From NCBI GenBank assembly GCA_029932605.1, contig JAOZPT010000070.1, positions 1 to 10,385 on the forward strand: a stretch of DNA of 10,385 nt. Direction: 5' to 3'. Within the stretch, counting starts at the first letter, position 1, and every line of letters starts with the position of its first letter. Source of the stretch: Candidatus Zixiibacteriota bacterium (GTDB lineage: Bacteria > Zixibacteria > MSB-5A5 > UBA10806 > 4484-95). The notes beneath the pieces were generated by a model, which saw nothing but the letters and a program-made list of their open reading frames with translations, searched no databases and was not told the DNA's origin. A program made the translations under genes and the position numbers. Below are positions 1,138 through 3,955 of the stretch, in pieces.

Positions 1138-1187
1138 AGCGGGAGACGGGTCTCGAACCCGCGACAAGTCCAGATGGACTGCTCTAC
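1138..1187 (-). pseudogene. Partial tRNA-Gly copy (distal) lacking the 5' 18 nt, anticodon arm replaced
   Basis: Minus strand GTAGAGCA-GTCCATCTGGAC-TTGTCGCGGGTTCGAGACCCGTCTCCCGCT; both flanks are identical to tRNA-Gly at 1770-1842. Confidence 0.9.
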
Positions 1188-1441
1188 ATAATAAAGTCCT
1201 CTTGCCTTAAATCCCTCTTTAAATCGACAGATTCAATACCCTTTAATTCCCTCTCCCGCCTCATCGCCATACACCTCGACTCAAACTCCTCAACATGAAC
1301 CAGACGTAATGGCCTTCTATATTTCGTCGATTTAACTCTACCAGTCTCATGTGCTAATAACCTCTTCTCAAGATTGGATGTCTGACCAATATACAATTTG
1401 CCGTCCTTATCGCTTTTCAATATATATACCCAAAAACCCAT
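1184..1441 (-). CDS. Small GIY-YIG nuclease family protein (UPF0213/YazA-like), copy 2, 85 aa
   Basis: WVYILKS...LYIGQTSNLEKRLLAH...TKYRRP...AMRRERELK with conserved Tyr, Tyr, Gly, Arg, His, Glu. ATG at 1441 preferred because the longer TTG start at 1483 lies in tRNA-derived sequence. Confidence 0.9.
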   Translation of the reverse strand: MGFWVYILKSDKDGKLYIGQTSNLEKRLLAHETGRVKSTKYRRPLRLVHVEEFESRCMAMRRERELKGIESVDLKRDLRQEDFIM

Positions 1442-1453
1442 AAACACTATATA

Positions 1454-1503
1454 AGCGGGAGACGGGTCTCGAACCCGCGACAAGTCCAGATGGACTGCTC
1501 TAC
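1454..1503 (-). pseudogene. Partial tRNA-Gly copy (proximal) lacking the 5' 18 nt, anticodon arm replaced
   Basis: Identical to 1138-1187. Confidence 0.9.
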
Positions 1504-1757
1504 ATAATAAAGTCCTCTTGCCTTAAATCCCTCTTTAAATCGACAGATTCAATACCCTTTAATTCCCTCTCCCGCCTCATCGCCATACACCTCGACTCAA
1601 ACTCCTCAACATGAACCAGACGTAATGGCCTTCTATATTTCGTCGATTTAACTCTACCAGTCTCATGTGCTAATAACCTCTTCTCAAGATTGGATGTCTG
1701 ACCAATATACAATTTGCCGTCCTTATCGCTTTTCAATATATATACCCAAAAACCCAT
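1500..1757 (-). CDS. Small GIY-YIG nuclease family protein, copy 1, 85 aa
   Basis: Identical to 1184-1441; ATG lies 12 nt after the tRNA-Gly discriminator base. Confidence 0.9.
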   Translation of the reverse strand: MGFWVYILKSDKDGKLYIGQTSNLEKRLLAHETGRVKSTKYRRPLRLVHVEEFESRCMAMRRERELKGIESVDLKRDLRQEDFIM

Positions 1758-1769
1758 AAACACTATATA

Positions 1770-1842
1770 AGCGGGAGACGGGTCTCGAACCCGCGACAAG
1801 CAGCTTGGAAGGCTGCTGCTCTACCAACTGAGCTACTCCCGC
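1770..1842 (-). tRNA. glyT: tRNA-Gly, anticodon TCC (CCA not encoded)
   Basis: GCGGGAGTAGCTCAGTTGGTAGAGCAGCAGCCTTCCAAGCTGCTTGTCGCGGGTTCGAGACCCGTCTCCCGCT folds as a cloverleaf: acceptor GCGGGAG/CTCCCGC, anticodon stem GCAGC/GCTGC, loop CTTCCAA, U discriminator. Confidence 0.97.
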
Positions 1843-1854
1843 ATTACGGTTTAC

Positions 1855-1883
1855 ATATTATAGCCAAATCTGTTTTCAGTCAA
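1855..1883 (-). promoter_or_regulatory. Putative sigma70 promoter for tRNA-Gly and the GIY-YIG array
   Basis: TTGACT at 1883-1878; TAATAT at 1860-1855 (17-nt spacer) or overlapping TATAAT at 1862-1857 (15-nt spacer), just upstream of the tRNA 5' end. Confidence 0.6.
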
Positions 1884-1957: not shown

Positions 1958-3307
1958 CTATTTAAACCGGTATAGGTTTTCACTTACGATTTCTATTGAA
2001 AGATTTAATTCTCCTGCGAGCACAAGCGTGGTTAAAAATGATGCGAACTCGCACGCATTGGTAATTCCCATAAAACGCATTATCTCTCTGCCCAATGGAG
2101 GAATAGCCCCTTCGGATGATGATATGACACCAGCTTCAATGTTTGGCATTTCTACACCATATACAATATTACTTTTTTCCCTGTAACAGAATATTCTTTG
2201 AGTCGATGAAACTAACGGAGCATGAGGATTAATTTTTAAGGCTTTATAAACCCCAGAGATTATTTCACCGCCCATACCCGTATGGTGAAACCAGCCCAAT
2301 TTCTCAGTTCCTTTTGCATCCATTGCCACAAAACTAACGAACTTGTCTGCTGGTTTACCGGTAAGCTTTTCTATTTCCGAATCGGGGATTGATAATTTTG
2401 CCATACAATATCTACCGCGTTTGTTGCGTGGTGAAGGTTTCAAATCACCATCATAGCCCTGTGTAATCCCGCTCAGTGTAAATTGAATACCTTCTGAATT
2501 CAACTTTTCATCAATAAGTTTCTTTGCCAGACCCGTTGCCTTGCTTATTGCACCATGACCGCGATAGAGTTTAAAATCAGCCGTGAAATCAACATACAGA
2601 TAAAACCTTCCCATATCCTCAACCGGCAAGATTTCCACGAAACTAACTTCAGCTCCCCATTTTGAAAGTATTTCGTTCATCTTAGAACATATTTCCGGGA
2701 AGAACGACTCGATTATTTTCATGGCTTTGTAACGAGTTGAAGAATCATCAAATATATATCCTAAGTTTCGGCAGGCTCTGGAGGTATCCAATACAGTAAC
2801 CTCGGCACCACCATAACGGTTTATAAAATACCCGCCTCGTGTCACACCGATAGGTCCCAATCCGGTACCATACTGTAGAATGCCGATAAATTCTTTTTCG
2901 ATATCTCCTTTAATATTAAAATTTCCACAATAAGAATAATAATCATCAATACCACCGATATAATTAGCTGTTAATGAATATAACTGTTGAGGCTTGGGTG
3001 AAATAAGTTTGTTTCCACATACCGAGCATGTCATGCATCCATCAAATGCAGCAAGTTGATAATCTATGTTGCATTCCTTACACTGATATTTTATAAGGTA
3101 TGGATTTTCAGGCAATAACAAGTATCTGAATTTCTCGCCGCTAATTTTTTCGAGAAAATTTCTACGCACGGTCGCCGCAACATAGTAATTCCCGGGAGGA
3201 AAAAGACCATATTCATCAGCTAAATGACCTTCTATTTTCCATGGAGGAATATCACCGGCCTGGATAAGTGAAACAAGTTTGTCGATGATTACTTTATCAA
3301 AAGACAT
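1958..3307 (-). CDS. Divergent class I HMG-CoA reductase-fold protein with inserted zinc ribbon; canonical catalytic motifs not conserved
   Basis: Colinear similarity to archaeal HMGR as recalled: AATVRRNFLEKISG, ANYIG, GNFNIKG, VTRGGYFINRYGG, DLKP...RGR, VEMPNIEAG, LVLAGELNL. ATG at 3307 follows GGGGAG (3317-3312), so it is preferred to TTG at 3319. Confidence 0.8.
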   Translation of the reverse strand: MSFDKVIIDKLVSLIQAGDIPPWKIEGHLADEYGLFPPGNYYVAATVRRNFLEKISGEKFRYLLLPENPYLIKYQCKECNIDYQLAAFDGCMTCSVCGNKLISPKPQQLYSLTANYIGGIDDYYSYCGNFNIKGDIEKEFIGILQYGTGLGPIGVTRGGYFINRYGGAEVTVLDTSRACRNLGYIFDDSSTRYKAMKIIESFFPEICSKMNEILSKWGAEVSFVEILPVEDMGRFYLYVDFTADFKLYRGHGAISKATGLAKKLIDEKLNSEGIQFTLSGITQGYDGDLKPSPRNKRGRYCMAKLSIPDSEIEKLTGKPADKFVSFVAMDAKGTEKLGWFHHTGMGGEIISGVYKALKINPHAPLVSSTQRIFCYREKSNIVYGVEMPNIEAGVISSSEGAIPPLGREIMRFMGITNACEFASFLTTLVLAGELNLSIEIVSENLYRFK

Positions 3308-3339
3308 AAAACTCCCCAATAATATCGTAATCTTTAAAA

Positions 3340-3469: not shown

Positions 3470-3551
3470 TGGAGGGGGGAGGATTCGAACCTCCGAAGGC
3501 TGAGCCGACAGATTTACAGTCTGTTCCCTTTGGCCGCTCGGGAACCCCTCC
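3470..3551 (-). tRNA. tyrU: tRNA-Tyr, anticodon GTA (CCA not encoded)
   Basis: GGAGGGGTTCCCGAGCGGCCAAAGGGAACAGACTGTAAATCTGTCGGCTCAGCCTTCGGAGGTTCGAATCCTCCCCCCTCCA: acceptor GGAGGGG/CCCCTCC, loop CTGTAAA, variable arm GGCTCAGCC. Confidence 0.97.
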
Positions 3552-3882: not shown

Positions 3883-3955
3883 AGCCGGAGAACGGACTCG
3901 AACCGCCGACCGGCTGATTACAAATCAGCTGCTCTACCAACTGAGCTACTCCGGC
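3883..3955 (-). tRNA. thrU: tRNA-Thr, anticodon TGT (CCA not encoded)
   Basis: GCCGGAGTAGCTCAGTTGGTAGAGCAGCTGATTTGTAATCAGCCGGTCGGCGGTTCGAGTCCGTTCTCCGGCT: acceptor GCCGGAG/CTCCGGC, anticodon stem GCTGA/TCAGC, loop TTTGTAA. Confidence 0.97.

Follow-up and report, generated by a model that had tools for sequence, protein, structure and literature searches.

A short hairpin in place of the anticodon arm in pseudo-tRNA-Gly copies beside tandem GIY-YIG nuclease genes of a Zixiibacteriota bacterium

The window considered here is the whole stretch of DNA that was analysed, an entire contig of 10,385 nucleotides (JAOZPT010000070.1; G000:C99) from the Candidatus Zixiibacteriota assembly GCA_029932605.1 (hereafter G000), and it contains an intact tRNA-Gly gene followed by a small tandem cassette that combines GIY-YIG nuclease genes with fragmentary tRNA copies, all of which are read on the minus strand. 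The tRNA gene, tRNA-Gly(TCC) at 1842..1770, is recognized by both ARAGORN and the Rfam tRNA model (69.8 bits) and is the single copy of its kind among the 40 tRNAs that ARAGORN detected in the 2.53-Mb assembly. The cassette forms an exact tandem repeat at 1138-1800 with a period of 316 bp, 2.1 copies and 100% identity (Tandem Repeats Finder, score 1326), which starts with the last 31 nt in common with the real tRNA-Gly. Each unit opens with the final 30-31 nt of the tRNA, which a spacer of 12 nt separates from a GIY-YIG gene of 85 codons; the string GTAGAGCA-GTCCATCTGGAC closes the unit and continues into the following copy of the tRNA 3' part. The first nuclease gene (1500..1757), whose 85-amino-acid translation is designated P0001, matches Pfam PF01541 with an E value of 5.1e-14; its start codon lies 12 nt past the tRNA 3' end, and its stop codon TAG (1502..1500) falls within the tRNA-derived GTAGAGCA. 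The second gene (1184..1441) is the same as the first (100% identity, E 1.6e-53). Two pseudo-tRNA-Gly fragments accompany these genes. The first (1454..1503) comprises GTAGAGCA at 1503..1496, the hairpin GTCCATCTGGAC at 1495..1484 and 30 nt of the tRNA 3' part at 1483..1454, and the second (1138..1187) comprises the same elements at 1187..1180, 1179..1168 and 1167..1138, respectively. This second fragment borders unique flanking DNA and includes positions 1167-1187, to which a preliminary description of this DNA had drawn attention.

The real tRNA-Gly(TCC) reads GTAGAGCA-GCAGCCTTCCAAGCTGC-TTGTCGCGGG on the minus strand, whereas both pseudo copies read GTAGAGCA-GTCCATCTGGAC-TTGTCGCGGG (1187..1158 and 1503..1474). 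In them a self-complementary string of 12 nt takes the place of the 17-nt anticodon arm, tRNA identity being retained on either side, and the strings and coordinates given for this exchange in the preliminary description proved correct in both copies. A genome search that it had suggested located the 12-mer GTCCATCTGGAC at exactly two places in the 2.53-Mb assembly, both in this locus, compared with a chance expectation of 0.04 matches within the window. The pairing that it reported for both copies is likewise present in each, but the two hairpins are not independent evidence, because the 316-bp repeat represents one recent duplication. The tRNA identity on the 5' side amounts in the window to only 8 nt, which overlap the nuclease stop codon; the pseudo copies of relatives retain up to 26 nt of the tRNA 5' part and show that the copy is tRNA-derived on either side of the replaced arm. 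Neither ARAGORN nor the Rfam tRNA model calls the pseudo-tRNA copies of the window, in which the absence of the 5' acceptor strand, the anticodon loop and most of the D arm leaves less than the cloverleaf of a functional tRNA.

Because 31 nt of the tRNA 3' end are repeated on either side of the insert, as at integrase attachment (att) sites, an ordinary att-site duplication of an integrase-borne island could be invoked for this arrangement, as could an assembly artefact. Both are highly improbable. No integrase or transposase families were found among the nine open reading frames (ORFs) neighbouring the cassette, the insert measures 316 bp per unit, and identity resumes 5' of the hairpin instead of stopping at the crossover. 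As for an artefact, the repeat unit including its hairpin is present, with 0-2 differences, in Logan contigs of four runs from three studies (one of the four runs may be the source sample), and the cassette is therefore not peculiar to this single assembly. Contig depth of the unit relative to its flanks is about 2-3-fold in two of the runs (X1, X2) and about 1.2-1.5-fold in the others (X3, X4), which is a hint only, depth not being copy number, and none of the Logan contigs joins the tRNA directly to the distal flank.

Within the family, 8 of 10 genomes (one of them G000) yielded homologues of P0001 at E values of at most 1e-5; within the order, 15 of 24 genomes did so (E at most 1e-8), and within the class 22 of 285 (E at most 1e-16). 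The closest homologues, with 52-64% identity, all adjoin tRNA-Gly(TCC) and together with G000 represent 16 genomes of five families (the relatives being G001, G002, G012, G018, G021, G023, G049, G050, G231, G232, G236, G243, G246, G248 and G255). In 15 of the 16, G000 included, the nuclease gene has as its neighbour a partial or full pseudo-tRNA-Gly whose anticodon arm is swapped exactly to the base; the exception is G232, in which the nuclease gene is truncated. The replacement is a quasi-palindrome of 10-12 nt with the pattern NNCCR-NN-YGGNN, and its variants comprise GTCC-ATCT-GGAC, ATCC-ATCT/AGAT/AAGT/AAAT/AACT/AATT/ATTT-GGAT, ATCC-TAC-GGAT, ATCT-GTAC-GGAT, ACCC-GTAC-GGGT, AGCC-GTAC-GGCT and (A)CCC-ATCT-GGG(T). 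Where the cassette lies downstream of the real tRNA, as in the window and in family f2, the copy retains the 3' part of the tRNA; where it lies upstream, as in G001 and in G002 with its three tandem units, the 5' part is retained; and in G231, G243 and G248 the cassette occupies both sides.

The preliminary description had held that the hairpin is selected, rather than left by random decay or plain att duplication, and had expected a consistent and covarying hairpin in homologous repeats beside GIY-YIG genes. Such a hairpin is indeed present in an alignment of 23 pseudo-tRNA-Gly segments (17 of them distinct) from 15 genomes, in which a 5-bp helix was scored. All 84 helix cells are paired, 83 of them by Watson-Crick pairs and the remaining one by G-T, and changes on both sides that preserve pairing occur at three of the five pairs, in 8 cells (A:T/G:C, T:A/C:G/G:C and A:T/G:C), with the inner CC/GG pairs invariant. 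None of 500 shuffles matched the observed percentage paired or the covariation score, and sliding the partner strand by 1-3 columns lowers pairing to 4-45% of cells. The sequences flanking the hairpin match the host's own tRNA (AGCA/TTGTCG in G000, AGTC/TGGTCG in most genomes and AGTG/TAGTCG in G012), and despite this matching the difference between native arm and hairpin is maintained in all hosts. On the basis of this covariation, and because the hairpin persists amid host-matched flanks, we argue from the sequence comparison that it is kept by selection.

It is conceivable that the palindrome is instead a functionless by-product of insertion or repair, generated for example by a cut at the base of an extruded anticodon stem followed by fill-in. 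In copies of tRNA-Gly, tRNA-Ala and tRNA-Asp, the exchange coincides to the base with the foot of the anticodon stem, which suggests a structure-directed event, and the hairpin itself is weak. Compensatory changes at three pairs together with invariant inner CC/GG pairs across five host families, the survival of the hairpin where the flanks have been homogenised with the real tRNA, and a shared sequence core that fresh scars would not be expected to possess nevertheless make a neutral scar distinctly improbable.

Several observations concern the condition of individual copies among the relatives. In loci L021-L024 (G018, G021, G012 and G023), the downstream copies contain, in addition to the swapped arm and between GGTCGCGRG and TTCGAA in the 5' strand of the T arm, another insert of about 17-19 nt; it holds a further YCC-loop-GGR hairpin and is missing from the copy of the window. 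The nuclease genes of L037 (G018:C41) and L041 (G246:C345) contain in-frame stops, and some cassettes are therefore decaying; in L041 the pseudo-tRNA hairpin copies persist. In L022 (G021:C76), a run of N at about 1900-1956 directly follows an upstream pseudo-tRNA-Gly copy and interrupts the readable sequence of that locus.

The habit extends beyond tRNA-Gly, since related nuclease genes adjoin tRNA-Ala, -Asp/-Val, -Met, -Asn, -Ser and tmRNA genes. Homologues of at least 55 aligned residues occur at 47 loci. At 32 of these, a tRNA or tmRNA gene lies no more than 200 nt from the homologue, co-oriented with it in 32 of 32, and 6 of the 47 loci contain tandem multi-copy arrays; the loci without such a neighbour mostly stop a few hundred bases or less from the gene or fall in a clade linked to the repeats known as SRM, which are introduced below. 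In pseudo-tRNA-Ala(CGC) copies the arm is replaced by CCCGTACGGG, and near-identical CCCGTACGGG hairpins stand in for the arms of both tRNA-Gly and tRNA-Ala copies. Pseudo-tRNA-Asp copies have TCCCGACC-loop-GGTCGGGA in place of the arm, with a TTCG loop in some of these Asp-type hairpins, and in the pseudo-tRNA-fMet copies of G006, TCCGCC...GGCGGA hairpins are located in the D loop and in the T arm. The last genome also contains, upstream of its initiator tRNA-Met, a gene-less 126-bp tandem repeat of 3.3 copies (L008 1010-1428; G006:C165), the unit of which is a 5' pseudo-tRNA piece with a TCCGCC-GC-GGCGGA palindrome in place of its D loop; farther downstream come two nuclease cassettes, in which each pseudo copy has two such hairpins. 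In L035 (G010:C12), a more distant homologue (38% identity) is separated by 33 nt from a tmRNA gene of the same orientation, and tmRNA may thus also host cassettes of this kind. The notion that the TCC...GGA stem represents an anticodon paired in cis with a Gly codon was rejected, similar stems being present in the D loop and T arm of pseudo-tRNA-Met copies and in the T-arm inserts of family f2. In a tree of 45 nuclease proteins (one copy per tandem array; L018, L019, L020, L030 and L046 were excluded because they are broken, truncated or unmatched, and L037 and L041 were kept despite their in-frame stops), which is based on a short alignment and leaves many forks open, the proteins group by tRNA type, with 16 changes compared with 26.7 in shuffles and 0 of 200 shuffles as low.

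P0001 is a bare catalytic domain, PF01541 spanning residues 3-68 of its 85 amino acids with no other domain, and Y6, Y17, R27, H31, E63 and K67 are invariant in 17 homologues. Comparable catalytic residues (Y6, Y17 and E64) of Neisseria meningitidis SsnA were mutated by Chenal et al. 2025 (PMC11893778). As described there, Ssn proteins are single-domain GIY-YIG nucleases of about 94 amino acids that bind the NTS/SRM hairpin repeat in single-stranded DNA (ssDNA), cut a few bases upstream of the hairpin and are inactive on double-stranded DNA (dsDNA) or RNA; their genes are usually flanked by NTS/SRM, a layout that the authors likened to a mobile element (PMC11893778). P0001 shows 44% identity (E 6e-16) to a 97-amino-acid GIY-YIG protein of Azospirillum lipoferum 4B, a genome that is included in Supplementary Data 5 of the same paper (PMC11893778) and in which four matches to the published SRM pattern flank the gene. 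That gene lies between sufB and sufC (L067; NC_016623.1 254018-257215) with an inverted pair of identical SRM repeats on each side, an arrangement that resembles an insertion into the suf operon. G000 itself possesses a third GIY-YIG gene (C14:25961-26207; L005 1452-1698), whose product shares 37% identity with P0001; an SRM match precedes this gene by 49 nt, and the same motif recurs at C85:9 and C93:1616. As judged from its sequence, the C14 gene with its hairpin is a classical Ssn/SRM pair that resides beside the tRNA-linked type in the same genome. Genome-wide, the SRM pattern occurs 9 times in G000 compared with 2-7 in shuffles, three of the hits being one real motif.

The reading favoured here is that the 12-nt hairpin serves as the cis site of the cassette and is probably recognised by the cassette's own nuclease; this reading is considered to have about an even chance of being correct. 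Among the roles listed in the preliminary description, a nuclease recognition mark or the end of a REP-like element fits best, given the homology of the nuclease to hairpin-binding Ssn-type enzymes. Like Ssn, the nuclease would dock on the hairpin and nick or break the spare tRNA copy, and repair by means of the homology offered by an adjacent or incoming tRNA gene would then lead to tandem amplification and to copying into empty tRNA-Gly alleles. The working tRNA would never be destroyed in the process, and the exchange would additionally render the spare copy non-decoding. Tandem arrays and the polymorphism between filled and empty sites described below would be explained in this way, because breaks at the hairpin would be repaired off tRNA homology. 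In addition, the pseudo copies of families f2, f15 and f16 read GAGTC-ATCC-ATCT-GGAT, compared with GTC-ATCC...GGAT in the canonical repeat of A. lipoferum, and the hairpin could, as a lead only, be regarded as a miniature SRM on account of this likeness, part of which is supplied by the tRNA itself.

The points that weigh against recognition by an Ssn-like mechanism concern the hairpin, the enzyme and the sampling alike. Folded as ssDNA, the isolated hairpin reaches -2.9 kcal/mol (z -0.91), a weak value that is matched by 35 of 200 shuffled sequences. The motif is confined to its two copies in this locus, unlike NTS/SRM repeats, which are dispersed genome-wide; the generic NNCCR..YGGNN palindrome occurs 55 times in the genome compared with 33-42 in shuffles, which is not convincing as genome-wide spread. 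At the 16 loci bearing pseudo-tRNAs, the window included, the published SRM pattern was found 0 times compared with 0.5 per shuffled set, by the same script that recovers the pattern at the positive controls (C14 of G000 and A. lipoferum). In the tree, the SRM-linked proteins constitute a clade separate from the tRNA-linked ones with 100/100 support, and the specificity of the nucleases may differ accordingly. Related genomes are not independent samples, and part of the conservation may reflect shared descent; moreover, only one clean pair of empty and filled sites is available, a second attempt (G013) having yielded a rearranged locus. Finally, the fifth pair leaves a 2-nt centre, which would suit a dsDNA palindrome bound by a dimer at least equally well. 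GIY-YIG restriction enzymes act on short palindromes. Because of this 2-nt centre and the near-exclusive Watson-Crick pairing, the substrate could be either a single-strand hairpin or a dimer-bound double-stranded palindrome.

The presence of a nuclease gene at a tRNA gene also recalls homing endonucleases, and the exchange has been interpreted in the preliminary description, among other possibilities, as an immunity mark. According to this proposal, the enzyme would cut the native tRNA-Gly gene at or near its anticodon arm, much as SegB of phage T4 cuts tRNA-gene sequence, the cassette would be copied in by break repair, and the swapped arm would serve only to make the spare copy uncuttable. 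The nuclease lineage follows tRNA type, the exchange takes out exactly the part that differs between tRNAs, and the presence or absence of an insert at a fixed site, which is characteristic of homing endonucleases, is seen in one pair of relatives (G248 and G247). SegB, according to the abstract of its description (PMC2330249), has a 27-bp recognition site, of which the conserved T-psi-C motif of tRNA genes forms part, and drives homing. Immunity is nonetheless unlikely. An intact native arm remains beside the nuclease gene in 16 of 16 genomes, so that the host copy would stay cuttable. Pairing would be unnecessary for mere resistance, yet it is conserved through compensatory changes, and the near-identical CCCGTACGGG hairpins are common to tRNA-Gly and tRNA-Ala copies alike. 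The protein, furthermore, is a bare 85-amino-acid catalytic domain without a joined DNA-binding region: the model of group I intron endonucleases (TIGR01453, 215 positions) aligns only residues 5-35 with positions 4-34, at 22.3 bits against a cut-off of 56.05.

The pair of relatives just mentioned shows the filled and empty states. In G247, which belongs to the same genus as G248, tRNA-Tyr is followed by a single intact tRNA-Gly and then by the flank, representing an empty site. The filled site of G248 has about 507 extra bases between flanks that are 89-94% identical to those of G247, in the order pseudo copy, real tRNA, pseudo copy, nuclease gene and pseudo copy, with the host flanks bordering the outermost pseudo copies. 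Since the T loop of the distal pseudo copy differs from the host type and that of the real tRNA is of the host type, this locus fits a cassette that arrives with a pseudo-tRNA of its own and recombines close to the 3' end of the tRNA. Together with the tandem arrays, the filled/empty pair points to mobility of the cassette. G013 was rejected as a second empty site, as only a 3' tRNA-Gly remnant persists at its old locus and the real tRNA lies on another contig. Beyond chromosomes, one unannotated record of a phage collection (45.5% identity) and four plasmid sequences (39.5-47.7%) match the nuclease, none of them a close relative.

Two models could describe how such loci arise. A unit composed of a partial 5' part, the hairpin, the 3' part and the nuclease gene may cross over with a tRNA gene on either side of the hairpin, which would account both for a real tRNA followed by repeats of nuclease gene and pseudo copy and for repeats of pseudo copy and nuclease gene followed by a real tRNA. 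Alternatively, the cassette may be nested in the anticodon arm, a model that would fit the two-sided loci equally well. In the broadest formulation, which is proposed tentatively and as possible rather than probable, these loci would exemplify a class of selfish tRNA-gene cassettes in which an Ssn-like nuclease of about 85 residues uses a hairpin cis site that replaces the arm, tRNA flanks supply homology, break repair amplifies or copies the cassette, and the essential tRNA is spared.

An RNA-level function has also been considered, in which the combined hairpin and tRNA piece would process, stabilise or terminate nuclease mRNA read through from the tRNA promoter, or would represent a non-decoding tRNA-like RNA. 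The sole promoter-like site relevant here is a sigma-70-like match (TTGACT-17-TAATAT, 1883..1855, minus strand) that lies 13 nt upstream of tRNA-Gly and is a consensus match only, the search having returned 4 sites compared with 2.8 expected. Because neither a promoter-like nor a terminator-like site was found between tRNA-Gly and the nuclease genes, the two are presumably co-transcribed. This promoter arrangement, the position of the nuclease stop codon inside the pseudo-tRNA, the full-length pseudo copies of some relatives with the arm as their sole swapped part (the upstream copy of L042 is an example) and the TTCG loop of some Asp-type hairpins are all compatible with a role in RNA. However, the copy in the window is deprived of its 5' acceptor strand and of the greater part of the D arm, and those of G001 and G002 lack the T arm; because the copies miss different parts of the tRNA, a common tRNA-like fold is impossible. 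The position of the hairpin relative to the gene varies among lineages, being 3' of it in some and 5' in others, the helix cells are almost exclusively Watson-Crick with a single G-T, and the search for a terminator-like site offers no sign of a terminating function. An RNA role is thus rather doubtful, and the non-decoding tRNA mimic of the preliminary description, in particular, is unlikely for the truncated and undetected copy of the window. Known RNA families were rejected as well: apart from the tRNA itself, the only Rfam matches are at chance level (YrlA, 21 bits compared with a threshold of 69; Yar_3, 17.8 compared with 50).

The surroundings of the cassette differ from those of related genomes. 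No upstream pseudo-tRNA copy was found in the window, where the only other match to the 5' half of tRNA-Gly is tRNA-Thr(TGT), whose first 26 nt (3930-3955, minus strand) differ from those of tRNA-Gly(TCC) by one base; because of this near-identity, a cassette with 5' tRNA homology could in principle pair with either gene. A 453-amino-acid ORF (1958-3319, minus strand) with a weak match to HMG-CoA reductase (E 1.3e-8) lies between tRNA-Tyr (3470-3551) and tRNA-Gly (1770-1842) and interrupts what is in relatives a compact Thr-Tyr-Gly-Thr tRNA cluster. tRNA-Thr(GGT) is absent downstream of tRNA-Gly in the window.

Full-text literature searches, from which subscription journals were largely excluded, returned no description of GIY-YIG cassettes with hairpin-swapped pseudo-tRNAs. 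What this locus and its relatives add is an unusually short hairpin that contains AT pairs, a clean covariation series and a filled/empty pair and, as a contrast, a canonical Ssn/SRM pair elsewhere in G000. Should the hairpin be the site of the nuclease, the cassette would constitute a minimal self-propagating unit of an 85-residue enzyme, a 12-nt hairpin and borrowed tRNA homology. If this is true, it would extend the Ssn ssDNA nucleases from dispersed repeats to residence in tRNA genes, and it would explain a recurrent annotation puzzle, the broken tRNA copies and tandem repeats beside tRNA genes, at which contigs often end. It would also provide very short, naturally varied recognition hairpins for the engineering of site-specific ssDNA cutters, and the covariation series (in which one pair varies among T:A, C:G and G:C and two others between A:T and G:C) offers ready substrates for a direct test.

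Among known systems, REP/RAYT and IS200/IS605 elements employ HUH/Y1 transposases and covalent intermediates. The enzyme here is instead a GIY-YIG domain, and its hairpin lies within tRNA homology. What these systems have in common with the cassette is a small nuclease gene accompanied by short hairpin repeats that act as ssDNA cis sites, as discussed in PMC11893778. By sequence, the closest solved structures are those of UPF0213 proteins (BH0048, PDB 1zg2, E 6.8e-8; EF2693, PDB 1ywl, E 1.3e-6; residues 1-70), which are likewise single-domain GIY-YIG proteins of about 100 amino acids; their depositors assigned no function, and their entry names mention neither tRNA genes nor hairpins. SegB, the nearest analogue among homing enzymes, resembles the cassette in being a GIY-YIG gene among tRNA genes with a presence/absence polymorphism between relatives (PMC2330249, abstract). 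It differs in being a phage enzyme that cuts dsDNA at a 27-bp site, whereas a bare domain on a bacterial chromosome is found here, and tRNA copies with swapped arms, hairpins and tandem arrays do not feature in its abstract (PMC2330249). With regard to Ssn, the hairpin described here measures 12 nt, compared with 20-50 nt, and departs from the SRM pattern, which together with the separate clade of the SRM-linked proteins argues against simple membership; it is also non-dispersed and stands exactly at the anticodon-arm position of a partial tRNA copy, and the word "tRNA" never appears in PMC11893778. The two nevertheless share a bare GIY-YIG domain of about 85-97 amino acids with the same positions of the catalytic Tyr, Tyr and Glu, encoded by a gene that is flanked by short hairpin-forming repeats (PMC11893778).

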